A stretch of 64,000 bases of DNA, from positions 116,792 through 180,791 of the forward strand of contig JBBDXE010000008.1 of assembly GCA_040902505.1 (NCBI GenBank), written 5' to 3'. A program made the translations under genes and the position numbers. Position 1 is the first letter of the stretch. Every line of letters begins with the position of its first letter. The stretch comes from Dehalococcoidia bacterium (GTDB taxonomy: Bacteria > Chloroflexota > Dehalococcoidia > DSTF01 > JACRBR01). The notes beneath the pieces were generated by a model, which was not told where the DNA came from, ran no database searches, and worked only from the letters and a program-made list of their open reading frames with translations. Of the stretch, positions 36,928-54,026 are shown one piece after another.

Positions 36928-38229
36928 ATGAAAATCTGCTTCCTGATGTACCAGGGCAACATGTACTCGGGTGGGCAGGGCGTCTACCTCTACTACCTGA
37001 CCCGCGAGCTGGCGCGCTTGGGCCACGAGGTGCACGTCATCGCCGGGCCGCCCTACCCCCGCCTCGATGAGGCAGTCACTGCCCACCACATCACCGACTA
37101 CAGCTACTGGACGTACCACCACTACAAGAAGGACTTCATCTTCAACCGGCCGCCCCTCAGCTACTTCCACCCCGTCAACTTCTACGACTTCATCTCCACC
37201 CGCATCAGCCTCTCCTCGCTGCTGGCGAACTTCAGCGTGCGCGCCTACCTCAAGCTGCGCGAACTGTCCCGCGAGCACCGCTTCGACATCGTCCACGACA
37301 ACCAGACCCTGAGCTACGGCGTCTGGGCCGCCCACGCCACGGGATTCCCCCTCGTCGCCACGATCCACCACCCCCTCTCGTACGACCTGCGCAACGCCCT
37401 CCGCCAGGCCCGCACCGCCTACGAACGCGCCCGCCGCATCCTCTGGTCGCCCTGGATGATGCAGGAGGTCGTCGCCCGCCGCATCGAGCGGATCATCGTC
37501 GTCTCCGAGACCTCGAAGGTCGACGTCATGGACGCCTTCGGCCTCCCCGAGGACCGGATCCGCGTCGTCCACAACGGCATCGACACCGACACCTTTCGCC
37601 CGCTTCCGGACGTGGAGCGCCAGCCGGACAAGCTGCTCTACGTCGGCAACTCGGAGGACCGCAACAAGGGCGCCCGCTACCTCCTCGAGGCGCTGGACAT
37701 CCTCAAGGACGAGCTGGACTTCCGCGTGACCTTCGTGGACAACGAGAAGTGGCAGCTCAAGCTCGCCCCCCGCCTCGTCGACGAGCTGGGCCTGCACTCC
37801 CGCGTGGACTTCACCGGACGCATCACCACCCCCGAACTGGTGCGACACTACAACGAGGCGCGCCTCCTCGTCTCTTCGTCGCTGCACGAGGGCTTCGGCC
37901 TGCCGCTGGCGGAGGCGATGTCCTGCGGCACGCCCGTCATCGGGACGCAGATCGGCGCCTTCCGCGAGATCGTCCGCCACGGCGAAGACGGCTGGCTCGT
38001 CCCCCCCGGAGACTCCCGCGCGCTTGCGGAGGCGATCCGGATGATGTGGAATGACCCATCGTTGCGGGAGCGCCTCGGCGAGGCCGGCCGGCGCCGGATC
38101 CTCGATCGCTTTAGCTGGCGCCGCGCCGCCGAGCAGACGGTCGCCGTCTACGAGGAAGTTGCGCGGCCCCGGCGGAGCGTGCATCGGGCGCCCGCCATCG
38201 CTTCTACAGGTCAGGACCAGGACCGCTAG
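36928..38229 (+). CDS. Glycosyltransferase family 4 (GT-B, RfaB-like)
   Basis: N-terminal MYQGNMYSGGQGVY sugar-donor-loop motif. The C-terminal E-X7-E region (..SSSLHEGFGLPLAEAMSCGTPVIGT..) is typical of GT4. Confidence 0.8.
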   Translation: MKICFLMYQGNMYSGGQGVYLYYLTRELARLGHEVHVIAGPPYPRLDEAVTAHHITDYSYWTYHHYKKDFIFNRPPLSYFHPVNFYDFISTRISLSSLLANFSVRAYLKLRELSREHRFDIVHDNQTLSYGVWAAHATGFPLVATIHHPLSYDLRNALRQARTAYERARRILWSPWMMQEVVARRIERIIVVSETSKVDVMDAFGLPEDRIRVVHNGIDTDTFRPLPDVERQPDKLLYVGNSEDRNKGARYLLEALDILKDELDFRVTFVDNEKWQLKLAPRLVDELGLHSRVDFTGRITTPELVRHYNEARLLVSSSLHEGFGLPLAEAMSCGTPVIGTQIGAFREIVRHGEDGWLVPPGDSRALAEAIRMMWNDPSLRERLGEAGRRRILDRFSWRRAAEQTVAVYEEVARPRRSVHRAPAIASTGQDQDR

Positions 38230-38242
38230 CGCAGGAGCGCGC

Positions 38243-39016
38243 GTGCCCGACAACATCGTCAACGTCGACTTCCGCCGGCACTTCCGGCTCCGCCCCGGCG
38301 AGCGCGTACTCGACCTGGGCTGCGGCAGCGGCCGCCACACCCTCGAGGCCGCACGCTACCCCGTCCGCGTCGTCGGGCTCGACTTTTCCCGCGACGACCT
38401 GCAGGCCGCGCGCTTCATGTACGCCGACCTCCAGCGCAAGGGACAGGCCCCCGGCCATGTCGACTTCATCGTCGGCGACGCGCAGAACATGCCGTTCAAA
38501 GACGGCGCCTTCGACAAGTCGATCTGCACCGAAGTCTTCGAGCACATCCCCGACGATGCGCGCGGCATCGCCGAGTTCGAGCGCGTGACCAGGCCCGGCG
38601 CGGCGGTCGCAGTGAGCGTGCCGAACTACTGGCCCGAGACCGCCTTCTGGACGCTCAGCTGGGGCTACTGGCACACCCCCGGCGGCCACGTACGCCGCTA
38701 CCGCCCCGGGCAGATGCGCGGGATACTCGAGCAACAGGACATAACGATCGCATTCCAGCGCAACCGCCACTCATTCCAGTCCGTCTACTGGTTCTTCCGC
38801 TGCCTCTTCGGCATCGACAACGAGGGCTTCCTGCCCGTTCGCGTGTTCCAGAAGTTCATCAACTGGCACCACGCCCGCCGCATCAAGCTCCTGGAATACG
38901 TCGAAGCGACCGCCAACCTCGTGATCGGGAAGGATATGATCCTCTACGGCCGCAAGCGCGGCGGCGCCACGGAAGAGCCGGCTGCCGTCGCTGCCGCCGG
39001 CGCGCGCGAAGGATGA
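38243..39016 (+). CDS. Class I SAM-dependent methyltransferase
   Basis: GTG 38243 after a CAGGAG RBS. VLDLGCGSG motif I, with ..FDKSICTEVFEHIPDD.. and ..RVTRPGAAVAVSVPN.. SAM-MTase motifs. The longer ORF from 38051 overlaps the GT and is rejected. Confidence 0.75.
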   Translation: MPDNIVNVDFRRHFRLRPGERVLDLGCGSGRHTLEAARYPVRVVGLDFSRDDLQAARFMYADLQRKGQAPGHVDFIVGDAQNMPFKDGAFDKSICTEVFEHIPDDARGIAEFERVTRPGAAVAVSVPNYWPETAFWTLSWGYWHTPGGHVRRYRPGQMRGILEQQDITIAFQRNRHSFQSVYWFFRCLFGIDNEGFLPVRVFQKFINWHHARRIKLLEYVEATANLVIGKDMILYGRKRGGATEEPAAVAAAGAREG

Positions 39017-40587
39017 AGATGATCGAGAGCACCACGCTGGATCGCTTCCAGTCCGTCGACCCGCGCCTGCTCGATATCGCCGCCACCGACAACGTCGTCG
39101 ACATCGGCTGCGGGACCGGACGTCACGTGCTGGAGCTGGCGAAGGCCCCGGCGAACATCATCGGCGCCGACATCTCGTCCGAGGATCTGCTCAAGGGCCG
39201 CTACCTCATCGAGATCATGCGCCGGCGCCGCGAGGTGCAGGCCCGCGTGCACTGGATGCAGGCCGCCGGCGAACACCTCCCCTTTGCCGACGGCGCGTTC
39301 GACCGCGTCATCTGCACCGAGACGCTGGAGCACGTCGAGGACGATGCGCTCCTCGCGCGCGAGTTGGTGCGCGTGCTCAAGCCCGGCGGCATCCTCGCCA
39401 TCAGCGTCCCCGATGAGTACTCCGAGCGGCTGTTCTGGAAGCTCTCCGTGAACTACCGCACACACGTCGGCGGCCACGTCCGCATCTACAGCCGGCCGAG
39501 GATCGTCCGCCTCATGCGCGAGGCCGGGCTGCGCCCCTACGCCGTCCGCTACCGCCACTCGCTCGAGACCATGTACTGGCTCGGCCATGTCGCCTTCTGG
39601 AGCGAGTGGGGGAAGCAGGGCCCCATCACCAGCGCCTTCCGGAAGCTCCTCGATTCGCCGCGCTTGCGTGAGTCGAAGCTCATGTCCGCCCTCGATGACA
39701 TCGGCAACCGCATCCTCCCCAAGAGCATCGTCGTCTACAGCCGCAAGCCGCTCGACGAGCCGCTCGCGCCCGTGACGCTCGCCGACGAGACGCCGCACGA
39801 GTTCGGCGTGCCGGAGCATCTCGCGCCGGAGGTGGACGCCGAGGCGGCCTTCCGCGAAGCCCTCGTCGCCGCCGGTGAGCTGCCGTCGGCGAACGGCCAC
39901 GGCGCCGCCCGCGAGGCGGAGGAGCCCGACGACCGCACAGCCGTCGAGGTGCGCGCCGTCCCCGCTCCGTTCGAGATCGACCCCAACGCAGGCGGCGCCC
40001 CTGCAGCCTCCGGGCCGCTCGTCCTCCGCGACGAGTTGCGGATCGCCCTCACCCTCGAAGGCGAAGCGCAGAAGCAGCGCCTGGTGGAGATCCTGCGCTC
40101 CTGCCGCTTCCGCTTCATCGGCGAGGTCCAGGAGCTGTCCGGCGAGCAGGCCTCGACGCCCTGGACGCCCGACGGCCGTTCGATGAAGGAGATCGTCGGC
40201 CACATGACCGGCTGGGAACTCTGGGTCGTCACCGCCCTTGAGGAGATCGCCGCGGGCGCCGCCGAGCCCGGCATCATGTCGCTCTCCGGCTACCCCGTCG
40301 GCATCAGCCGCTACGGATCGATCGACGCCTTCAACGCCGCCCGCATGGCCGAGACGCGCGAGCGCATGTGGTCGGCCGTCCTCGCCGACTCCGACGCCAC
40401 GTTCGAGCGCCTACTCGCCGCCGTCGAGCGCGTGCCCGCGTCCTCACTGCGGCAGACGGCGCCCTTCTTCTGGCCCGACCTCGGCGGCACCGTCCCGTGC
40501 GGCGTCTACCTCCTCATGGTCTCCGCCCACCACTACCAGGAAGAGCACCTCCCCGAAGTGCTGAGAGGCCCCGCCGCTGCGCGCTAG
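39013..40587 (+). CDS. SAM-dependent methyltransferase fused to a C-terminal DinB/ClbS-like (DUF1706-type) four-helix-bundle domain
   Basis: The N-terminal half (VVDIGCGTGRH.., FDRVICTETLEHVEDD) is paralogous to the preceding methyltransferase. The C-terminal ~170 aa (..SMKEIVGHMTGWELWVV..HHYQEEHL) is ClbS/DinB-like. ATGA overlap with the upstream methyltransferase gene. Confidence 0.6.
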   Translation: MKMIESTTLDRFQSVDPRLLDIAATDNVVDIGCGTGRHVLELAKAPANIIGADISSEDLLKGRYLIEIMRRRREVQARVHWMQAAGEHLPFADGAFDRVICTETLEHVEDDALLARELVRVLKPGGILAISVPDEYSERLFWKLSVNYRTHVGGHVRIYSRPRIVRLMREAGLRPYAVRYRHSLETMYWLGHVAFWSEWGKQGPITSAFRKLLDSPRLRESKLMSALDDIGNRILPKSIVVYSRKPLDEPLAPVTLADETPHEFGVPEHLAPEVDAEAAFREALVAAGELPSANGHGAAREAEEPDDRTAVEVRAVPAPFEIDPNAGGAPAASGPLVLRDELRIALTLEGEAQKQRLVEILRSCRFRFIGEVQELSGEQASTPWTPDGRSMKEIVGHMTGWELWVVTALEEIAAGAAEPGIMSLSGYPVGISRYGSIDAFNAARMAETRERMWSAVLADSDATFERLLAAVERVPASSLRQTAPFFWPDLGGTVPCGVYLLMVSAHHYQEEHLPEVLRGPAAAR

Positions 40588-40810
40588 TTGTTAGTTCTCA
40601 GTCATCAGTAGCCAGTAGTTCGTGGGACGGGCGCATTGCAGGACTTTCGGAAGCTCGAAGTGTGGCGGAAAGCTCATGAGCTAACCCTGCTCGTGGATCA
40701 GCCGGGTGCTTGCTGACAAAATGACGGCTGAGACACTGACAACTAATGACTGAGGACTGAAGAACTGAGAACTGAAGACTGAAGACTGAGAACTGAAGAC
40801 TCACAACTCC
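40588..40810 (+). repeat. Composite spacer: inverted blocks of ACTGARR heptamers flanking a ~110-bp core
   Basis: The 5' block gttagttctcagtcatcagtag is the reverse-complement orientation of the repeat. The 3' block is gactgaggactgaagaactgagaactgaagactgaagactgagaactgaagact. Confidence 0.6.
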
Positions 40811-42106
40811 ATGAAGCTCGCCTTCATCATGTACCAGGGCAACATGTACTCGGGTGGACAGGGCGTCTACCTGCACTACATCACCCGCGAGCTCGTCCGC
40901 CTCGGCCACGAGGTGCACGTCATCTCCGGACGCCCCTACCCCACCCTCGCCGAGGGCGTCGTCCACCATCGCCTTCACACCTACAGCTTCTGGGCCTTCC
41001 TCAACGGTCGCGACGACCACGCCTACGATCACACCCACAACCCCGCCGAGTTCTTCCACCCCTGGAACTTCTACGAGTTCGCCTCCACCCGCGCCTCCCT
41101 CGCGTCGCTCTTCTTCACCTTCAGCGTCCGCGCCTACCGCAAGCTGGCCGAGCTGGAGGCCGCCGGCGGCCCCTTCGACCTCGTGCACGACAACCAGACC
41201 CTCGGTTACGGCATCCTCGCGATGCGCCAGCTGCGCGGCCGCCCCGTCGTCGCCAGCATCCACCACCCGCTCGCCATCGACCGCGCGAACAACCTCCGCG
41301 AAGCCCGCAGCCTCACCGCCCGCATCACGAAGGAGCTGTGGTTCCCCTGGCGCATGCAGTCCTACGTCGCCAACCGGCTCGACCTCATCCTCACCGGCTC
41401 ACGCAACTCCGCCCACTCCGTCAGCGCCGCCATGGACATCCCCATCGGGCACATTCGCCAGACTCCCTACGGCGTCGACCACGAGGTGATGCGCCCGCTG
41501 CGCGGCGTCCCTCGCGAGCCCGGCACCATCCTCTTCGTCGGCGACTCCGAGGACCGCAACAAGGGCGCGCGCTTCCTCATCGAGGCCTGCGGCCGGCTCG
41601 CGCAGGAGATGGACTTCCGCCTGCTGTTCAAGGACAAGAAGGAGAAGGACATGAAGGTCGTGCCGCCGCTGGTCTGGCAGCACGGCCTCATGCGCAACGT
41701 CGAATACATCGCGCGCGTCTCGACCGATGAGCTGGTGGCGCTGTACAACCGCGCCCAGGTCGTCGTCTCGCCGTCACTCTACGAAGGCTTCGGCCTCCCC
41801 GCCGCCGAGGCCATGGCCTGCGGTACCCCCGTCGTCGCCACCACCGCCGGCGCCTTCCCCGAGTTTATCGAGGACGGCCGCACGGGCATCCTCGTCCCCC
41901 CCGGCGACCCCGCCGCCCTCGCCGCCGCTATCCGCGCGCTCCTCACCGACCCCGAGCGCTGCGAGCGCATGGGGGCCGCCGCCAGCGAGCACATCCGCAC
42001 CAACTTCACCTGGACCCGCACCGCCCACCGCACCCTCGAGGTCTACGACGAAGTCCTCCCCCCGCACCCGCGTGCCACTCGCCCGGTAGTTGGCGGGCGG
42101 CGCTGA
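40811..42106 (+). CDS. Glycosyltransferase family 4 (paralog of 36928..38229)
   Basis: MYQGNMYSGGQGVYLHYITRELVRLGHEVHVI.., nearly identical N-terminal architecture. E-X7-E region present. Confidence 0.8.
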   Translation: MKLAFIMYQGNMYSGGQGVYLHYITRELVRLGHEVHVISGRPYPTLAEGVVHHRLHTYSFWAFLNGRDDHAYDHTHNPAEFFHPWNFYEFASTRASLASLFFTFSVRAYRKLAELEAAGGPFDLVHDNQTLGYGILAMRQLRGRPVVASIHHPLAIDRANNLREARSLTARITKELWFPWRMQSYVANRLDLILTGSRNSAHSVSAAMDIPIGHIRQTPYGVDHEVMRPLRGVPREPGTILFVGDSEDRNKGARFLIEACGRLAQEMDFRLLFKDKKEKDMKVVPPLVWQHGLMRNVEYIARVSTDELVALYNRAQVVVSPSLYEGFGLPAAEAMACGTPVVATTAGAFPEFIEDGRTGILVPPGDPAALAAAIRALLTDPERCERMGAAASEHIRTNFTWTRTAHRTLEVYDEVLPPHPRATRPVVGGRR

Positions 42107-42842: not shown

Positions 42843-44126
42843 TCAAGGGGTAGTCTCCCTGCACACCCCGGCCCGGTCGTCCGCGTTGCCCCGGGCGCTG
42901 TTCCCCGACGTGATCACGTTGCCCGCCTGGAAGATGCAGATGGCCGATCCTCTGTTGTCGAAGATCTCGTTGTTCTCGATGCGCCCCAGCGACGTGTTCA
43001 CGTACGACACGCCGATCCCGCGGTTTCGGTAGATCCGCGAGTTCGTGAGGTTCAGGTTCGCCCCCTGCGCCAGCACCCCGCCCCCCAGCGTCCCCGTGTC
43101 TGGCAGCACCACGCTGTCGTGGATGTCGTTGTTGTTGAGGCTTCCGGACGCCCGGATGCGCTCGCCGCTCCGCACCTGCGGATACTTCGTCGGGTCGGGG
43201 AACGCCCGGAACTCGATCGCGTGCTCCTCGTTTCCGTCGTACTCGTCCGCCTCCGACGTCACGCTCGCCCCCCACACGAACAACCCCGTGAGCACGTTTC
43301 GCCAGATGTGGTTGTTCCGGAACGTCCCCCGCGTCCCCGGGAACATCACGATGCCCGTGCTGCCGCTGCTCTGGATCACGTTCCCGTCGAGGATGATGTT
43401 CGCGTCCCCGACGAACCCGCGCAGGTTCGAGAGATAGCACTCCGGGATCTCCACCACCGCCGGCGGCAGCAGCGCGCACGGCGTCTGCCCCGCGAACACC
43501 CCCGGCCCCCGGTTGTGTGAGATGATGTTCCGCACGATCGTCGTCGTCGCCGTCTGCCCCACCGTCGATACCCCCACCCCGCCATTGTCGATGATCCAGT
43601 TCCGCTCGACCGTCGCGTTCGATTCGCGCCGCACCAGCACGCCGTCGCCGCTCATCGCGTACACGAACGAATCGCTGACCCGCCCGATGCTCCCCACGTC
43701 GAAGTGGATCCCCACGACCCCGCCCCCGGCGTCGATCCGCGCGAAGTTGATGTTCTGGCTCCGCCAGACGTAGGCGTTCGTCGGGTTCCCGAGATACAGC
43801 GTGAAGTCCTCGAACACGAGGTCGCGGCTGTTGAAGACCAGCAGCCCGTCCTTCGCCCCGCCCACGATCACCGTCGCCTTCGGCCCCAGCCCCCGCAGCG
43901 TCACGCCGGTCTTCGAATCGAAGGCCACCGGCCCGAGGTACACGCCCGCCGTCATGCAGATCACGTCGCCCCGGCCCGCCCGGTCGATGAGCGCCTGCAG
44001 CGTGTCCGGCCGCGCCAGCGTCGTGCACGCCTCCTGCCCCGCCGCGCGCGGCGCAACACCGGCCCCTCCGCCGGCGAGTAGCGCGATCAGGAAGACGATC
44101 GGGACAACAGGCCGCATCCGCCGCAT
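42843..44126 (-). CDS. Secreted right-handed parallel beta-helix (pectate-lyase/NosD-like PbH1 repeat) protein
   Basis: Signal peptide MRRMRPVVPIVFLIALLAGGGAGVA. Repeated ..NN.I..N..G.. beta-helix rungs. Start at 44126 with a GGAGG RBS. The 556-aa upstream extension is rejected. Confidence 0.6.
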   Translation of the reverse strand: MRRMRPVVPIVFLIALLAGGGAGVAPRAAGQEACTTLARPDTLQALIDRAGRGDVICMTAGVYLGPVAFDSKTGVTLRGLGPKATVIVGGAKDGLLVFNSRDLVFEDFTLYLGNPTNAYVWRSQNINFARIDAGGGVVGIHFDVGSIGRVSDSFVYAMSGDGVLVRRESNATVERNWIIDNGGVGVSTVGQTATTTIVRNIISHNRGPGVFAGQTPCALLPPAVVEIPECYLSNLRGFVGDANIILDGNVIQSSGSTGIVMFPGTRGTFRNNHIWRNVLTGLFVWGASVTSEADEYDGNEEHAIEFRAFPDPTKYPQVRSGERIRASGSLNNNDIHDSVVLPDTGTLGGGVLAQGANLNLTNSRIYRNRGIGVSYVNTSLGRIENNEIFDNRGSAICIFQAGNVITSGNSARGNADDRAGVCRETTP

Positions 44127-44247
44127 CACCCCACCTCCAGAATCAGCCCCGCTACGCCCATAGTACCCGGTCGGTATTAGAGATTTGAAGCTGCCTCTCA
44201 CGATAACATTCACGTAACTTAATGGCGCTAGGAGGGTGTGAGTCTGC

Positions 44248-45333
44248 ATGTCCCTGCCAAGACGGGAGACCATGGGAAACGTCCTAGTGATCCTGGGAGC
44301 CGGCGCCTCATACGATTGTGTGTGGAGGAGCGAGGTTGGAATCGACAAGAAATGGCGGCCACCGCTCGCGGACCAGCTGTTCTCGGACGAGTACCTAGAG
44401 ACGCGCCGGAAGTACGCAAGCGTTGCGAGCTTGGCCCAGCAACTCAATGCGGAACTCCGGCTGCCAGGAAGGGACGAGAACTTCGAGGTGCTGCTCGCGC
44501 GGTTGGCGGCCAACCCAACTCGCCAGCGGCGAATGCAGTTTCGGGAAGTTCCTGCTTACCTGCGCGATCTCCTAGGTCACGTCAGCCGAGCGTACACGAC
44601 AGAAGCACCGAGTTGTTATACCCGTCTGTTCGGCCAACTACTGGACGCTGGCGTTGGCAAGGTCGCCTTTGTGACGCTCAACTACGACACCTTGCTTGAG
44701 CGAGCAATCGCAGAGGCAGACGGCGAGCCGTTCTCCATGGACTGGTACACGCAGCATGATGAGTGGATGGTCATCAAGTTGCACGGTTCAGTGAACTGGG
44801 GCCGAAGGATCGTGCAGTATCCCAAGGAAATCAGGTGGGGGCCGGGAATGAGAAATGTCTCTGCCGGGCCCGACGTTTACCTGGAGCTGCTCAGGAATAT
44901 TGACGACTTAGAGGAATGCACAAGCGATGTCGTCGAGATCATGCTGGGCAACCCCGAGACGAACTGGATGAGGAATGAGCCATACTATCCGGTACTAGCG
45001 GTCCCAGTCGAGAACAAGCTCCAACCTGTATGCCCACAGGCTCACTTGGAGGCGCTAGGGAGCTTCCTCCCGCTCTGTACTGATGTGCTTGCGATTGGCG
45101 TCAGTTGGCGAGACAAGGATCTGATCGACATCTTGAACGAAGGACTACCTGACAATGCGAACTTTCTCTACGTCGGGTGGGACGACGAGTACGAGGAGTG
45201 TCTCGATCGCTTCCGGGCTGCAGTTCCTCATGTTCCGGCCGCGCGTCCGACAGACTTTTCCCCGGCGAACGGGTTTAGCGACTTCATCGAAGGAGGAGCG
45301 CTCGCCAAATTCATCTCAAGGGCGAGAAGCTAG
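44248..45333 (+). CDS. SIR2_2-family (SIR2-like NAD-binding) protein encoded in a lower-GC islet
   Basis: Contains the ordered motifs VLVILGAGAS, FVTLNYDTLLE and IKLHGSVNW, which define the SIR2_2 (DUF4020-like / ThsA-type) NADase fold. Local GC is visibly lower than in flanking genes. An alternative start is M9 (44272). Confidence 0.65.
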   Translation: MSLPRRETMGNVLVILGAGASYDCVWRSEVGIDKKWRPPLADQLFSDEYLETRRKYASVASLAQQLNAELRLPGRDENFEVLLARLAANPTRQRRMQFREVPAYLRDLLGHVSRAYTTEAPSCYTRLFGQLLDAGVGKVAFVTLNYDTLLERAIAEADGEPFSMDWYTQHDEWMVIKLHGSVNWGRRIVQYPKEIRWGPGMRNVSAGPDVYLELLRNIDDLEECTSDVVEIMLGNPETNWMRNEPYYPVLAVPVENKLQPVCPQAHLEALGSFLPLCTDVLAIGVSWRDKDLIDILNEGLPDNANFLYVGWDDEYEECLDRFRAAVPHVPAARPTDFSPANGFSDFIEGGALAKFISRARS

Positions 45334-45342
45334 TTCAGCCAG

Positions 45343-47046
45343 CTAACCCGGCGCCAGCAACTGCTTCGCCGCATCCGCCACGCCCTCCAGCCCCACGATG
45401 CGCGCATCCTTCTCCGTCCGCTGCTTCACCTCCGCCCCGCCCCCCTCGATGCTCCGCGGGCTCACCGTCACCCGTACTGGCATCCCCAGCAGGTCGGCGT
45501 CGTTGAACTTCACCCCCGCAGAGCCCTCCTCGCGATCGTCGTACAGCACGTCCAGCCCCGCGTCCTGCAGCTGCTGATACACCTGCTCCGCGCTCTCCCG
45601 CACGCCCGGCTTGTCCAGCCCAAGCCCCACGAGGTACACGTGGTACGGCGCCAGCTCCGGCGGCCAGATGATCCCTCGCTCGTCGTGGTTCGCCTCGATC
45701 GCCCCCGCGAACACCCGCCCCACGCCGATGCCGTAGCACCCCATGATGGCCGGCTTTAGCTCCCCCGCCTCGTCCGCGAACGTCGCGTTCAGCCGCTCCG
45801 TGTACATCGTCCCCAGCTTGAAGACGTGCCCCATCTCCACGCCGCGCTTCGTCTCCAGCGTCCCCCCGCAGCGCACGCACGTCGACCTGTCCTGCGCCAG
45901 CGAGATGTCCGTGACGATCTCCGCCGTCCAGTCGCGGCCGTAGTTCACGTTCTTGTAGTGCACGTCCGGCTTGTTCGCCCCGGCGACCAGGTTGTGCGCC
46001 GCCGGCACCGAATCGTCCGCCACCACCCGCACCCCCGTCAGCCCCACTGGCGACGCCGACCCCGCCACCAGCCCGTGTTTCCGCACGCCCGCCTCGTCGA
46101 GCAGCTCCAGCTCCACCGCCCCCAGGGCGTTGCGCAGCTTCGTCTCGTTGACCTCCAGGTCGCCGCGGATGGCGACGAACACCGGCTGGCCGTCCGCCTC
46201 GTAGAACACCGCCTTCAGCGTGTGGTCGTGGGGCACACCCAGGAATGCCACCAGCTGGTCGATCGTCTTCTGCCCCGGCGTCGAGACCTCCTCGAGCGGG
46301 CGGGGGTCGTCTGGCGGCAGCTCGTGCTTCTTGTGGTCCGCCTTCTCAGCGTTGGCGCCGTACCCGCAGCGGTTGCAGAGCAGGACGGTGTCCTCGCCCG
46401 ATTCCGTCAGGAAGACGAACTCCTCGCTCTCCTTCCCGCCGATCGCGCCGGAGTCGGCGAGGACGGTGATCGCCGGGACGGCGCAGCGCTCGAAGATCCG
46501 CACGTACGCGTCGCGCGCCGCCTGATAGTTCTCGTCCAGCCCCTCCCACGCCGTATCGAAGCTGTACGCGTCCTTCATCGTGAATTCGCGCACCCGCATC
46601 AGGCCGCCGCGAGGCCGCGCCTCGTCCCGGAACTTCGTCTGGATCTGGTAGACCATCAGCGGCATGTCGCGGTAGCTCTGCACCTGCCGCTTGAACAGGT
46701 CCACCACCACCTCCTCGTGCGTCGGGCCGAGCACGAAGTCCCGGTCGCGCCGGTCCTTGAGCTTCACCAGCACGTCGCCCATCGTCCGCATGCGGCCTGA
46801 GTCTTCCCACATCTCGGCTGGCTGCAACGCCGGCATCACCACTTCCTGCCCCCCCGCCCGGTCCATCTCCTCCCGGATGATCTGCTCGATCTTGCGCATC
46901 ACCCGCCAGCCCACCGGCAGGTAGCTGTAAATGCCGGCCGCCAGTTGCTGCACCAGCCCCGCCCGCAGCATCAGCTGGTGGTTCGCCGACTCCGCCTCGG
47001 CCGGCGCCTGCCGCAGCGTCTTGCCGAACAGCTTCGAGATGCGCAT
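45343..47046 (-). CDS. proS: Proline--tRNA ligase (bacterial type, with editing domain)
   Basis: 567 aa. Class II motifs and the N-terminal MRISKLFGKTLRQAP.. are typical of ProS. Confidence 0.9.
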   Translation of the reverse strand: MRISKLFGKTLRQAPAEAESANHQLMLRAGLVQQLAAGIYSYLPVGWRVMRKIEQIIREEMDRAGGQEVVMPALQPAEMWEDSGRMRTMGDVLVKLKDRRDRDFVLGPTHEEVVVDLFKRQVQSYRDMPLMVYQIQTKFRDEARPRGGLMRVREFTMKDAYSFDTAWEGLDENYQAARDAYVRIFERCAVPAITVLADSGAIGGKESEEFVFLTESGEDTVLLCNRCGYGANAEKADHKKHELPPDDPRPLEEVSTPGQKTIDQLVAFLGVPHDHTLKAVFYEADGQPVFVAIRGDLEVNETKLRNALGAVELELLDEAGVRKHGLVAGSASPVGLTGVRVVADDSVPAAHNLVAGANKPDVHYKNVNYGRDWTAEIVTDISLAQDRSTCVRCGGTLETKRGVEMGHVFKLGTMYTERLNATFADEAGELKPAIMGCYGIGVGRVFAGAIEANHDERGIIWPPELAPYHVYLVGLGLDKPGVRESAEQVYQQLQDAGLDVLYDDREEGSAGVKFNDADLLGMPVRVTVSPRSIEGGGAEVKQRTEKDARIVGLEGVADAAKQLLAPG

Positions 47047-47153: not shown

Positions 47154-47948
47154 ATGAGCGATCCCGCGGCCGCACGCTCCACCGTCGACGTGTCCGGCGT
47201 CGTGCCGGAGGCGCGTCACATCGTCCAGCGGGTCGCGGAGATCTACCTGCGCCACCTGGATGCGTCGTTCATTGGCATGGAAGCCCTGGGCTCCGCCGTG
47301 ACCGGCGACTTCATCCCCGGTTGCAGCGACGTCGACATTCACATGTATGCCGACGATGCCGCGTTCGTGGAGCCATGGCGCCTTCCGTTCGAGATGACCG
47401 TCGCGATTCACCGCGAACTGTCCGCGATCGATGTGGCGCCCTTCGGCTACGTCCAGTGCTACGTGCTGCCGGCGCGGCTGCTGGAAGGCTGGAACGGCCC
47501 CATCCCCGGCGCCTGGCACCTCGTCGCGGGCCGCGCGCCGCTCGCCGAGGCGACCGCCGGAGAGCTGCGCGACGCCGCGCACCGTTCACTCGCCGAGCTG
47601 CGTCCGGTGCCCCGGTTCCTCGAGAACGCCCTGCTGGACTACGGTGATGTGCGGCTGCCCCGCCTCGCCCGCCTGATCTGCACGAACGACGTCTGGCCGC
47701 ACCTGCGTCACCTGCGCATCGCCCGTGGCATGGACCCGATCGCCGCCTGGAACCAGCCGAAGCTGGCGGCCGTCGAGAGCCTCCCCGCTGACTCCCCGGC
47801 CGGTCAGGCTGCTCGCGCCTTCGTGGAAGCTCTCCACGCGTACTACCCGGAGCGGACATCCACCGATGCCGCCCTCGCCCTGCTCGAACGGGGCGTCGCG
47901 TTCCTGCACGCGGTCAAGGAAGAGTACGCCCGCCTGACCGAGACGTAA
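47154..47948 (+). CDS. Nucleotidyltransferase-domain protein (aminoglycoside adenylyltransferase-like)
   Basis: GS..TGDF.PG.SDVDIHMY matches the minimal NTase motif G[SG]x9-13Dx[DE]. Confidence 0.55.
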   Translation: MSDPAAARSTVDVSGVVPEARHIVQRVAEIYLRHLDASFIGMEALGSAVTGDFIPGCSDVDIHMYADDAAFVEPWRLPFEMTVAIHRELSAIDVAPFGYVQCYVLPARLLEGWNGPIPGAWHLVAGRAPLAEATAGELRDAAHRSLAELRPVPRFLENALLDYGDVRLPRLARLICTNDVWPHLRHLRIARGMDPIAAWNQPKLAAVESLPADSPAGQAARAFVEALHAYYPERTSTDAALALLERGVAFLHAVKEEYARLTET

Positions 47949-48009: not shown

Positions 48010-48474
48010 TTACGCCTCGGGGGCGCTCCACAGCGTCTGGTGATGCTCACCGATGATCGCCGCCACGTTCGCCGCACGCTCCCGCTGACCCAGGTCCCGT
48101 AGCGCCGCGTCGCACGTCTCCAGCGCCCCGGAGAAACCCGAGCCGACGACCCGCTCGCGGATCGCCTCCCACAGGCCACTCTCTTCCAGGTAAGCGATGC
48201 TGTGCGGCCAGAAGAAGAACAGGAAGCTCTGCGGTAGCCCCAGCGTCGGACGGTGCTGCCCCAGCCAGAAGTAGCGCTCCTGCACTGTCGCCACCGGGTC
48301 GACGATCGCCACCATCGGCATCCCGCACGACCCGTCGGGATCGGCGTCATCGTGCCGCGTGTCGATGAGCAGCCGCTCCGGGAACAGCCGGAACCCGGCC
48401 GCGAAGACATCCGCTTCCTTCACGATCTCGTGGATCTCGCCAAGGTTCACGAGCACGCCGTTCTCTGTTCGCAT
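48010..48474 (-). CDS. Hypothetical protein
   Basis: 154 aa from MRTENGVLVNLG.. No recognisable motif. Confidence 0.35.
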   Translation of the reverse strand: MRTENGVLVNLGEIHEIVKEADVFAAGFRLFPERLLIDTRHDDADPDGSCGMPMVAIVDPVATVQERYFWLGQHRPTLGLPQSFLFFFWPHSIAYLEESGLWEAIRERVVGSGFSGALETCDAALRDLGQRERAANVAAIIGEHHQTLWSAPEA

Positions 48475-48523
48475 CTCACTCCATCTGGCCGCCGCGGGAT
48501 CGGGGCGCCACGGCCTTCTCATT

Positions 48524-51429: not shown

Positions 51430-51466
51430 CTCACTGAAAAACTGAGAACTGAGAACTGAAAACTAG
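51430..51466 (+). repeat. Short-period tandem repeat (ACTGARA)n between convergent genes
   Basis: ctcactgaaaaactgagaactgagaactgaaaactag. Confidence 0.7.
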
Positions 51467-52812
51467 TTCCGCGTCGTCCCCGGGATCCCGATCGCCACGT
51501 TCACCTTGATGAACACCGCGATCTCCTGCCGCACCGCACCCTGCCCCAGCCCGTCGATGCGCACGATCGCCGCGTCGCTCCCCAGCACCTTCCGCGGGTC
51601 GACGGAGATCATCAGCGTCGCTGTGCGCTCGCACGGTGACTCGCGCAGGCACGTCAGGTCGTCCCCCACCGCCACTCCCGCCAGCTGCGAGAACGTCACC
51701 CACGACTTGTCCGCGCTCACCCGCCACGGCACGATCCCCGTCCCCGCGTTCGAGATCTTCACCTCCACCGGCGTCGCCGACTGGTTCGGCCGCACATTCA
51801 CCAGCACGATCGGCCGGTCGATGGCGAGCCGCGGCAGCCCCAGCACCGCCAGGCGCACCAGCGGCGGAGGCGGCGGCGTGGCGTCCTGGTGCAGCGGCTT
51901 CGGCGTCGGAATGTCCATCCGCGTGTACGGGAAGTCGAAGTTGTCCAGGCTGAGCGGCGTGCTCCAGTACGGGTTGTTCAGGTCCGGCAGCGTCGCGTTG
52001 ATCGGCTCCCACAGCGCCTTCCCCTGCACCTCTGGCGGATTGGCCATGCAGCCGTACACCAGCTCCTGGTACGGGTGCAGCGCCCGGTTGTGGCTCAGCC
52101 CATCGTTTGCCCGCCCGCAGCTGTACGGCGTCCGCGGCCACCCGCCGTAGATCGGGTCCATCGGATGGTTGCTCCGGTTCGCCCCCGGCCCCGTGAAGCC
52201 GTTGTAGCCCCACACCGCGTAGTACCAGTTCTCCACGATCGCCGGGTCGCTGTCCGTGTCGATGCCCGCGATCGGCCGCGCTTCCGGCGCCGCGTTCCAC
52301 TTGTCGATCAGGATCGCTGCCCCCCGCCCGATGTTGTACGCGAAGTGCGTCGCCACCAACGCCTGCTCGTCCGTGGGCTGCTGGTCTTCGCCCAGCGGCG
52401 CTGTCATCCCGCTCGTCACCTGCGCGATCCCGTACCCGCAGTCGAACGACACCAGCCCCGGCCCGATCGCCCCGAACGGCAGCCCCGGCCCACCCTGCGT
52501 GATCACGCTCTCGATCCAGCTGATCGACTTCAGCAGCGTCGGCGGCACGTACACCGGCCCCGACGTGTTGCGCCCCCCCCGGACCCCCCGCTCCAGCAGC
52601 GGCTGCGAGAAGAAGCGGTCGCGCGGGAACAGCAGGTCGTGCCCCGCCAGGTCCATCGCCGCCAGGTAGAGTCGCCGGTCCTCCGTCGTCTCGTACGTCG
52701 TCGGCGACTGGGCGAACGCGCAGGCATTCGCCACCGGCGTGCGCCGCGACCCCGGCGCGAACATCGCCGCGAGCGCCAACGTTGCCAGACCCAGCGCCAG
52801 TAGCCGCATCAT
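51463..52812 (-). CDS. Secreted protein, possibly lytic-transglycosylase-like with a C-terminal Ig/BACON-like domain
   Basis: Start at MMRLLALGLATLALAAMFA (signal peptide), in an ATGA overlap with the upstream TolB-like gene. ..SWIESVITQGG...DCGYGIAQVTSG recalls the SLT E-S...G.Q motif. The 687-aa form in the ORF track is rejected. Confidence 0.4.
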   Translation of the reverse strand: MMRLLALGLATLALAAMFAPGSRRTPVANACAFAQSPTTYETTEDRRLYLAAMDLAGHDLLFPRDRFFSQPLLERGVRGGRNTSGPVYVPPTLLKSISWIESVITQGGPGLPFGAIGPGLVSFDCGYGIAQVTSGMTAPLGEDQQPTDEQALVATHFAYNIGRGAAILIDKWNAAPEARPIAGIDTDSDPAIVENWYYAVWGYNGFTGPGANRSNHPMDPIYGGWPRTPYSCGRANDGLSHNRALHPYQELVYGCMANPPEVQGKALWEPINATLPDLNNPYWSTPLSLDNFDFPYTRMDIPTPKPLHQDATPPPPPLVRLAVLGLPRLAIDRPIVLVNVRPNQSATPVEVKISNAGTGIVPWRVSADKSWVTFSQLAGVAVGDDLTCLRESPCERTATLMISVDPRKVLGSDAAIVRIDGLGQGAVRQEIAVFIKVNVAIGIPGTTRN

Positions 52813-54026
52813 TCCAGCCACCCCACGATCAGCACGTCCGAGGAGTCGGACACACGCTCGCGCGAGCCGTCCTCGTCCACCAGCTCCACGTGGCTCTGCC
52901 CCGCGTCGATCGGCGTCACCCCTTCGATGGCGCGCACCGCCAGCGTCGAGCCGTCCGGCGACCACCCCAGCGGCAGGTCGATGCCGTCCGCCTGCTGCGT
53001 GACCGCCCTCGCGGTGCCGTCCGCGTCCACCGCGCGCGCGCCGCCCCCCTCCCGGTCCACCGACCCGATCGTCAGTTCTCCGCCGGGGCTCCATTCCGGG
53101 TTGTACTCCGCCCGCCCGGCCCTTCCCGCGACGACGGCTTCTCCTGCCGTCCCCGTCGCCACGTCTAGTGTCATCGCTACGATCGCCGGCTCCGGCCCCG
53201 TGCGCGCGACGGAATAGGCCAGCGTCGCGCCGTCGGGCGAGAGCTTCCAGTCCCGTGCGATGCCGTTGCTCAGGTGCGCGACCAGCGCTTCGCCCGTGCC
53301 GTCCGGCGCGATGCTGTACAGGTCGGTGCCGCTGCTGCTCAGCGTCGCGAAGTAGATCCGCGACCCGTCCGGCGCGAACGCGATCGGGAACACCGCCGCT
53401 GTCGCCCACGTCGTGACCGTCGCCCGCGAGCCGTCGCGGCCCAGCAGCAACAGCTCGAACGTGCCGGCGCTGTTCTCGGCCGGCGTGTTCTTCCGCACCA
53501 CGATCGACTGGCTGTCCGGCGCCCACACCGGTGCGATCAGCAGGTCGGCGTCATCCGCGAGCAACGACACATCGCCGTCGTCCTCGATGACGCCCGCGAC
53601 AGCCGGTGCGTCCGCCGCCGGGTCGGCCGTGTCCGCCGGCAGCGCCGTGTATGCGATCGCCGACCCGTCCGGCGAGAGCGTCGCGAACGCGCCCCAGCCC
53701 GGCGCATGGTCGACCGTCGCCAGCGTGCGCCGCCCGCCCGCTACGTCCTCCGGGTCGACCGCGACGATCCTGTCCGCGCGCTCGCCGAACTCCGCAATGA
53801 TTAGCTGTTGGCCTTGAGACTGGGCCTGCTGGAAGGGCGTGGGCTGTTGGTTGTTGATGCGGTCGATCGCGAACCATCCGCCGCCCGCGATTGCAGCGGC
53901 GGTGCCCGTCGCGACAGCGGGCTTCGCGATGACGGAGATGACGCGGGCGAGGATCACAGGCGGCTCACTCCCTGCAGCTGCCTTCGTTCTCGCGCCGGCA
54001 CCCCGCCACGACCGGCGTCTCGGCAT
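52809..54026 (-). CDS. TolB-like / PD40 beta-propeller repeat protein with an N-terminal membrane anchor
   Basis: Repeated ..SPDGS.IA.. and ..APDGSRIYF.. PD40 blades. Confidence 0.6.
   Translation of the reverse strand: MPRRRSWRGAGARTKAAAGSEPPVILARVISVIAKPAVATGTAAAIAGGGWFAIDRINNQQPTPFQQAQSQGQQLIIAEFGERADRIVAVDPEDVAGGRRTLATVDHAPGWGAFATLSPDGSAIAYTALPADTADPAADAPAVAGVIEDDGDVSLLADDADLLIAPVWAPDSQSIVVRKNTPAENSAGTFELLLLGRDGSRATVTTWATAAVFPIAFAPDGSRIYFATLSSSGTDLYSIAPDGTGEALVAHLSNGIARDWKLSPDGATLAYSVARTGPEPAIVAMTLDVATGTAGEAVVAGRAGRAEYNPEWSPGGELTIGSVDREGGGARAVDADGTARAVTQQADGIDLPLGWSPDGSTLAVRAIEGVTPIDAGQSHVELVDEDGSRERVSDSSDVLIVGWLE

Follow-up and report, generated by a model that had tools for sequence, protein, structure and literature searches.

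A stand-alone SIR2_2-type gene in a variable slot beside proS, probably gained horizontally and a candidate one-gene defence module

SIR2 effectors of described defence systems

The SIR2 subunits of the SIR2-HerA (Nezha / GAO_19) systems, namely PsSIR2 (8w9l), SaSir2 (8yhx) and EcSIR2 (8j4u/8su9), are the closest solved structures to the product of a SIR2_2-type gene located in the window, the whole 64-kb stretch of DNA from a Dehalococcoidia bacterium analysed here, with a sequence identity of 15–18% and TM-scores of approximately 0.5. In the SIR2-HerA systems, the gene of the HerA ATPase is adjacent and SaSir2 requires HerA to open its α15 lid, whereas the window protein is partner-less, with no HerA gene adjacent to it, elsewhere in the window or within 2.5 kb of the SIR2 gene in 43 non-redundant homolog loci. 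The PADLOC models for SIR2 subunits of this type (GAO_19-type ‘SIR2’, E = 2e-4) match the window protein weakly and partially, as does the best-scoring PADLOC model, Aga_SIR2 (1.6e-4).

As opposed to the window protein, Thoeris ThsA has a C-terminal SLOG/Macro sensor domain and an adjacent gene for the TIR protein ThsB, both absent here. The short pAgo-associated SIR2 proteins (SPARSA / Aga_SIR2) come with APAZ and an adjacent short pAgo, which are absent in the window and in the homolog loci, and Avs5 (SIR2-STAND) has a fused STAND NTPase and repeat sensor that are not present in the window protein. A likeness exists to DSR1 and DSR2, in which a SIR2 NADase defence is encoded by one gene and SIR2_2 forms the N-terminal domain, but these are approximately 1000 aa or more in length and carry large C-terminal sensors, as opposed to the 353 aa of the window protein. 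The vertebrate FAM118A/B (SIRal) proteins, relatives of the antiphage sirtuins, are likewise single-domain SIR2_2 proteins of approximately 350 aa; filament formation controls these NAD-processing proteins, and control by oligomerisation recurs in ThsA, Avs5, SIR2-HerA and FAM118B (PMC12700824). More broadly, Bonhomme et al. split SIR2 proteins into sirtuins and ‘sirims’ and found defence systems to be 12-fold enriched around bacterial sirims, which provides a prior for a defence role of the present gene (10.1101/2024.09.18.613514).

A one-gene defence has been proposed for a small Sir2-like protein that stands alone, ‘sole-Sir2’, a candidate from a preprint on CRISPR-supervised systems, which is the only text returned by a full-text literature search for that name. 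It is a single protein of approximately 440 aa, in which a non-SIR2 N-terminal part is followed by a DSR2-like C-terminal Sir2; in vitro, it turns NAD+ into ADPR, and protection of E. coli against T2 and T4 is reported for a close homolog (10.1101/2024.12.27.630466). The window protein resembles sole-Sir2 in its small, stand-alone form and in the proposed one-gene defence, and is set apart from it, by description, by a length of 353 aa, a SIR2 domain that begins from approximately residue 10 and a nearest likeness to the SIR2-HerA type. A first-pass annotation of this DNA had regarded a SIR2_2-only protein of this size as not belonging to any described system. This stands for the architecture of approximately 350 aa, of which no description was met in the literature searched, but not for small one-gene Sir2 defence as such, which is not unprecedented given sole-Sir2; the novelty of the present case is tempered to that extent.

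Fold, catalytic site and a hypervariable insert

The 361-aa ORF at 44248–45333 on the plus strand is present exactly as first annotated, with an intact frame in the mechanical ORF list, apart from a small correction at its start. The identical NCBI protein (‘MAG: SIR2 family protein [Dehalococcoidia bacterium]’) is encoded on a 202,887-bp contig, begins at Met9 and is 353 aa long, and in the family alignment the first β-strand lies 2–5 residues after the start in nearly all homologs. Because the homolog starts and the NCBI annotation favour Met9, the true start is likely to be 44272 rather than 44248, and the coding sequence is given here as 44272–45333 (+). Shine–Dalgarno candidates upstream of both starts are weak.

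Starting from the N terminus, and in the numbering of the 361-aa ORF, the protein contains the GAGAS glycine-rich NAD-binding loop (residues 17–21; 44296–44310, +), the TLNYDTLLE motif with the catalytic-type Asn145 (residues 143–151; 44674–44700, +) and the KLHGS motif with the catalytic-type His179 (residues 177–181; 44776–44790, +). The order of the three motifs is as originally proposed, and an alignment of 45 family members adds that their key residues are invariant: G17, A18 and G19 in the first, with A20 and S21 conserved in at least 90%, N145 and Y146 in the second, and K177, H179 and G180 in the third. Further invariant positions are P38, P39, F45, E80, W184, P248, P253, G284 and D289, and every invariant and nearly invariant residue of the 45-member alignment is kept in the window protein.

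Pfam SIR2_2 (PF13289) matches the window protein significantly, at 35.4 bits against a gathering cutoff of 24.5 (E = 1.4e-8), over residues 140–189 only. It is the sole Pfam match in the protein, and a precomputed match to the same family is found on most homologs. An AlphaFold2 model with the family alignment as input shows a single domain (pLDDT 91.5, pTM 0.91) with the SIR2 Rossmann fold and a helical cap domain, confident over its full length, such that all 353 aa belong to one SIR2 fold. No SLOG, Macro, APAZ, STAND or other sensor domain was recognised in the Pfam scan or in the model. The sole significant PDB-sequence match of the family profile is 8w9l (PsSIR2; 1.4e-7), in which TLNYDTLLE is aligned with TNYDLLMEQ and KLHGS with KLHGSINW. 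The catalytic residues of SaSir2 are N226, with T225 before it, and H287 (PMC11514289), and N145 and H179 of the window protein are, as judged from sequence, their counterparts. The SIR2 fold and the catalytic-type residues are thus directly established.

A classical sirtuin (CobB-type deacylase) was considered and ruled out: Pfam SIR2 (PF02146) has no match at E ≤ 1 in the window protein, and the translated sequence contains no CxxC pairs and hence no CxxC...CxxC (Cys4) zinc module. Together with the SIR2 fold matches, these two absences define the protein as consisting solely of a SIR2 domain of the SIR2_2 (defence, ‘SIRim’) type, so the defence-type fold put forward in the first-pass annotation is borne out by both the PF13289 match and the structural matches. 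The same two absences speak against the gene encoding an accessory NAD-dependent enzyme outside immunity, such as a protein deacylase or an ADP-ribosyltransferase with a regulatory part in some process of the host or of a mobile element, as does the finding that the best structural and sequence matches of the window protein are defence NADases; we consider such a role unlikely.

Directly after KLHGSxNW, residues 190–243 (44815–44976, +) form a hypervariable insert. Its column entropy of 3.07 bits is the highest in the family alignment, compared with 1.8–2.2 in the core; with indels, it spans 46–74 aa in different members, and the confidence of the AlphaFold2 model is lowest here (pLDDT 66–68). 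The insert contains a helix, residues 208–217, located 29–38 residues past H179. In SaSir2, the α15 helix, 29–38 residues past H287, blocks the NAD+ site; HerA binding melts this helix, and its deletion produces an enzyme that is active without HerA. The spacing of helix 208–217 may therefore be compared with that of the α15 lid, a likeness in position only. On account of this spacing, its variability and its low model confidence, the insert is proposed as a candidate lid, and could act as an autoinhibitory or a specificity element.

Gain of the gene at a slot beside proS

As the first-pass annotation described, the gene is located between a secreted β-helix gene and proS. The former (42843–44126, −) is native and encodes a right-handed β-helix (NosD-like) protein of 427 aa with a signal-peptide-like N terminus (Pfam Beta_helix, 1.5e-25; NosD, 3.9e-14); it lies upstream of the SIR2 gene and is divergent from it. 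The likewise native proS, encoding proline–tRNA ligase (45343–47046, −; NCBIfam NF006625, 725 bits against a cutoff of 558), is convergent with the SIR2 gene, the two stop codons being 9 bp apart. Farther neighbours are genes for a glyoxalase, glycosyltransferases, a methyltransferase and groEL, and two ORFs without a family match. A Pfam scan of 52 ORFs shows the content of the window to be housekeeping, with ATP synthase, T2SS/T4P, transporters, groEL, proS and glycosyltransferases. PADLOC returns only generic matches on the same ORFs (mad2, PD-T4-6 and PDC-M28B), and the 64-kb window contains no further defence gene. The absence of an adjacent TIR, HerA, pAgo or STAND partner, noted at first for the immediate surroundings, extends in the PADLOC and Pfam searches of the 52 ORFs to the rest of the window.

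The SIR2 gene has the lowest GC and the lowest GC3 of any gene in the window. Its ORF has a GC content of 0.579 against a window mean of 0.679, and only 0.27% of 1086-bp sliding windows are as low, every one of them overlapping the gene. Among 53 putative genes picked by a GC3 > GC1 > GC2 pattern, its GC3 of 0.693 is the minimum (mean 0.884, s.d. 0.062); that of the β-helix gene is 0.885 and that of proS 0.949, and the low-GC islet is limited to approximately 44.0–45.4 kb. These window minima and the sliding-window check agree with the initial description of a lower-GC islet with A/T-ending codons.

The locus was compared with 80 proS loci from species-representative genomes, retrieved via ProS. 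The closest sampled relative, a Dehalococcoidia MAG (L011), has a ProS that is 81% identical and a β-helix ortholog that is 68.5% identical, and in it proS is followed by a gene for a 295-aa APH-family phosphotransferase (PF01636) and then by the β-helix gene. In blastn, the alignment of the window with L011 breaks off at 45375 and picks up again at 44009, and because of this break in nucleotide homology the intervening 44010–45374 is read as a replaced, variable slot, occupied by the SIR2 gene here and by the APH-family kinase gene in the relative. No APH homolog is found within the window, and the APH gene of the relative, unlike the SIR2 gene, has a native composition (GC 0.670, GC3 0.81). 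Lineage-wide orthologs in a housekeeping context were not found: all 80 proS loci lack a SIR2 homolog. Among 5.8 billion proteins searched, the SIR2 protein finds its best match other than itself at 39% identity, far below the 68–81% of the orthologs of the flanking genes. The closest homologs are on contigs with a GC content of 0.51–0.58, which fits a lower-GC donor.

The foreign composition of the gene and its absence at the locus of this relative are direct observations. Because of this composition, the different occupant of the slot in the relative and the lack of any SIR2 homolog above 39% identity among the 5.8 billion proteins, a lineage-specific horizontal gain of the gene is well supported by sequence comparison, in line with the acquisition first suggested from composition. 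That the gene is foreign in composition and is not kept in the closest relative also argues against the non-immune accessory enzyme considered above. The SIR2 gene is adjoined by no integrase, transposase or tRNA in the window. A 12-nt direct repeat (44111/45368) that brackets the islet was evaluated as an insertion scar and rejected, since chance alone would give approximately 0.5 matches of this kind and each copy falls within coding sequence that is conserved. The locus illustrates cleanly how one gene can replace another in a variable slot that adjoins an essential gene, proS.

The SIR2 and β-helix genes are separated by a divergent, relatively AT-rich intergenic region (44127–44271), extending from the β-helix start (44126, −) to the SIR2 start, within which both promoters presumably lie. 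No sigma-70 consensus promoter match and no terminator were found for the SIR2 gene in a consensus scan, which is uninformative for Chloroflexota. If the gene were a decaying or silent passenger, acquired and currently functionless in its host, then the lack of a consensus promoter and terminator, the stop codon 9 bp from that of the convergent proS and a composition that has not been ameliorated would all be expected features. Yet the frame is intact, all invariant and nearly invariant family residues are kept, the model is confident over the full length, and the promoter scan, being for the sigma-70 consensus only, says little in this phylum. A passenger of this kind is therefore very improbable.

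The family, its genomic contexts and a proposed function

A family profile search against 1.84 billion representatives at 50% identity returned 6,628 proteins with E ≤ 1e-3; of these, 1,852 reach E ≤ 1e-30, so the family has at least 1,852 clusters at 50% identity, with lengths of about 320–400 aa. The best 150 of the profile matches all have 263–398 aa and align to the profile end to end, and from these lengths and alignments a stand-alone architecture of approximately 350 aa appears to be the rule for this large and diverse family. Members are spread over Chloroflexota, Actinomycetota, Elusimicrobiota and other phyla, with source names that include Dehalococcoidia, Chloroflexi, Gaiellaceae and Elusimicrobiota. 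Among ten 90%-identity clusters examined, nine are singletons and one has two members, a pattern typical of fast-turnover accessory genes, which again counts against a non-immune enzyme.

The known defence models of PADLOC v2 and NCBIfam do not capture the family. Across the 45 family members, the best PADLOC matches are to Aga_SIR2 (6e-11) and ‘SIR2’ (2.2e-10), all of them partial. The NCBIfam model NF042942 (‘SIR2_antiphage’) reaches 11.1 bits against a cutoff of 500 (E = 0.14), the NCBIfam Dsr2 model (NF041819) 11.2 bits against a cutoff of 1400, and the PADLOC Dsr2 model an E value of 4e-3. The weakness of these matches and the lack of a recognisable sensor domain are points that count against a defence role.

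Genomic contexts of the homologs are variable. Six long homolog contigs have no neighbour in common, and in two of the six the SIR2 gene is located amid housekeeping genes. Contexts with mobile genes include integrase, excisionase and primase: one homolog adjoins an integrase / HTH_17 / DUF3854 / Terminase_4 element, one adjoins DDE transposases, another has pheST on one side and three IS110 transposases on the other, and one shares an island with an integrase, a 1300-aa helicase-PLD protein and a further SIR2_2 gene. For a larger sample, 80 metagenome loci and one viral-contig locus were retrieved, and 1,247 neighbour ORFs from 91 loci (77 non-redundant) were clustered to test for a conserved partner. 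The commonest neighbour is a tyrosine integrase, at 8 of the 91 loci (approximately 5 independent), followed by a 116-aa DUF559 protein at 5; as no neighbour family is common to more than 8 of the 91 loci, a conserved partner gene was rejected.

Closer to the gene, 132 ORFs within 2.5 kb of SIR2 at 43 informative non-redundant loci include ABC_tran (5), Phage_integrase (3), AbiEii (2), TIR_2 (2), E1-E2/JAB (2), ArdC (2) and N6_Mtase (1). Ten large ORFs scanned as candidates for the two TIR_2 carriers included no TIR. As raw counts, the numbers for the 132 ORFs are suggestive of a mobile-element and defence component that is visible, not dominant. In three loci (L158, L125 and L142), SIR2 is the last gene of a tightly spaced cluster, preceded in order by genes for a metallo-β-lactamase, an E2/E1/JAB fusion and a 244-aa unknown protein; the cluster is part of a defence island that also contains a caspase-helicase fusion, DUF5677, an M78 peptidase and AbiEii, and the first of the three loci is a clear defence island. 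The housekeeping character of the window, and the plain housekeeping surroundings of many homologs, count against a defence role.

Carriage by typical phages or plasmids was also considered and dropped, as phage, plasmid and viral-contig collections contain hardly any family members. No match was found in cultured-phage and plasmid collections by tblastn, a scan of IMG/VR returned one full-length family member only, and a search of viral folds in BFVD gave only classical viral sirtuins, with weak scores. This near-absence, by which mobile carriage is not general, is a further point against defence.

Globally, the loci show no obligate partner; the stand-alone architecture and the variable context are both directly established. 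The first-pass annotation had left open whether the gene is a minimal single-gene module or an orphaned effector, and it is the former that is favoured: with at least 1,852 stand-alone clusters and no conserved partner in 43 loci, standing alone is the normal state of the family, which disfavours an orphan. A related possibility is that the protein is an effector dependent on an unlinked partner, such as a HerA-like ATPase, a TIR signal generator or a pAgo, and so belongs to a split version of a known system. The closest solved relatives, SaSir2, PsSIR2 and EcSIR2, are inactive without HerA, inspection of this MAG covered 64 kb, a TIR_2 protein lies within 2.5 kb of SIR2 at 2 of the 43 homolog loci, and one sub-lineage is found in the operon-like cluster with the E2/E1/JAB fusion, all of which would agree with a dependent effector. 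Defence partners are, however, nearly always adjacent, and neither the 43 loci (within 2.5 kb) nor the window contains HerA, pAgo or STAND. Nor does the protein have a SLOG, Macro or APAZ domain with which to receive a signal or bind a partner, one SIR2 fold filling its 353 aa. We regard dependence on an unlinked partner as quite unlikely.

The reading that we favour, as somewhat probable, is that the gene would be a self-contained abortive-infection module in which NAD+ depletion serves as an anti-phage suicide switch. We infer the NADase chemistry and the defence phenotype from the fold, the catalytic residues, the patchy distribution and the partial mobile and defence association. An unregulated NADase is toxic, so some control of the enzyme would be required, and since the closest structural relatives need HerA, a partner-less enzyme would need control of a different kind. 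In the proposed mechanism, the product of this minimal single-domain SIR2_2 (‘SIRim’) gene, acquired horizontally into the variable slot between proS and the β-helix gene, would be held inactive in the uninfected cell, possibly with the insert as its lid, through its oligomeric state, or both. The insert would then be released on a cue from a phage or mobile element, and/or by an oligomeric change, after which the enzyme would hydrolyse NAD+ at Asn145/His179 and the infected cell would be arrested. By analogy with the closest characterised relatives, the products would be ADPR and nicotinamide. A more specific version, which we hold as tentative and rather doubtful, is that the bare SIR2 domain might be sensor and effector in one, with insert 190–243 as a diversifying autoinhibitory lid that phage factors release directly; such a lid would be the partner-free counterpart of the HerA-triggered α15 opening in SIR2-HerA.

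If self-contained SIR2 defence proves true, the window protein would represent the smallest architecture of NAD+-depletion immunity, and would raise the question of how one catalytic domain senses infection without a partner or a sensor domain, which bears both on the activation of SIR2-HerA and on the filament-controlled FAM118/SIRal sirtuins. Defence censuses now in use would miss the family, because it is absent from the model sets searched (PADLOC v2 and NCBIfam) and is concentrated in poorly studied environmental phyla. The family, whose thousands of diverse members span several phyla, might then amount to a widespread form of immunity that needs only one minimal protein.

Direct repeat and neighbouring genes of the islet

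The low-GC islet that holds the stand-alone SIR2 gene is flanked by an exact 12-nt direct repeat, GCCGCATCCGCC, with one copy on each side, the first inside the beta-helix gene at its 5′ end (44111-44122) and the second inside proS at its 3′ end (45368-45379). As about 0.5 such 12-nt matches are expected by chance in the 1.9-kb region around the islet, the repeat is probably a coincidence. In the closest sampled relative (L011), an APH-family phosphotransferase gene (L011 6435-7322) of native composition sits in the slot that separates proS from the beta-helix gene; there is an 8-nt overlap between its start and the proS stop.

Elsewhere in the window, two GT4 glycosyltransferase genes and, between them, a gene for a fusion of a methyltransferase and a DinB/DUF1706-like domain lie on the + strand (36928-38229, 39013-40587 and 40811-42106). 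Both glycosyltransferases also match the Pfam family PF20706 (‘GT4-conflict’), but their matches to general GT1 families are stronger. A second GC dip at approximately 40400-41000 (0.57-0.60), smaller than that of the SIR2 islet, is intergenic and lies upstream of the glycosyltransferase gene starting at 40811. Three sizeable ORFs, all of native composition, have no Pfam or NCBIfam match: two between proS and groEL (47154-47948, +, 264 aa; 48010-48522, −, 170 aa) and one at 51463-53526 (−, 687 aa).

Neighbourhoods of SIR2 family members

Within one sub-lineage of the SIR2 family, five loci encode an endonuclease-like DUF559 protein of approximately 116 aa, 0.1-1.7 kb from the SIR2 gene and in no constant orientation (L133 1058-1411; L144 214-561; L157 6038-6388; L159 6179-6532; L168 2867-3217). 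In MAG GCA_029262675.1, a family member lies in an island (L007 1623-5525 and 14223-15086) that also holds genes for a tyrosine integrase and a helicase-PLD protein of 1300 aa, as well as another, unrelated SIR2_2 gene; the same MAG encodes the family member P0008 on a separate contig.

A cluster with an E2/E1/JAB fusion

At three further loci, a family member closes a compact cluster of genes that all lie on one strand (L158 5770-11032; also in L125 and L142). The gene for the SIR2 protein (353 aa) follows those for a metallo-beta-lactamase of 380 aa, an E2/E1/JAB fusion of 782 aa and an uncharacterized 244-aa protein, in that order. Genes for a caspase-helicase fusion (904 aa), DUF5677, an M78 peptidase and AbiEii flank this cluster, which may constitute a defence system based on ubiquitin-like conjugation, with SIR2 as its effector.
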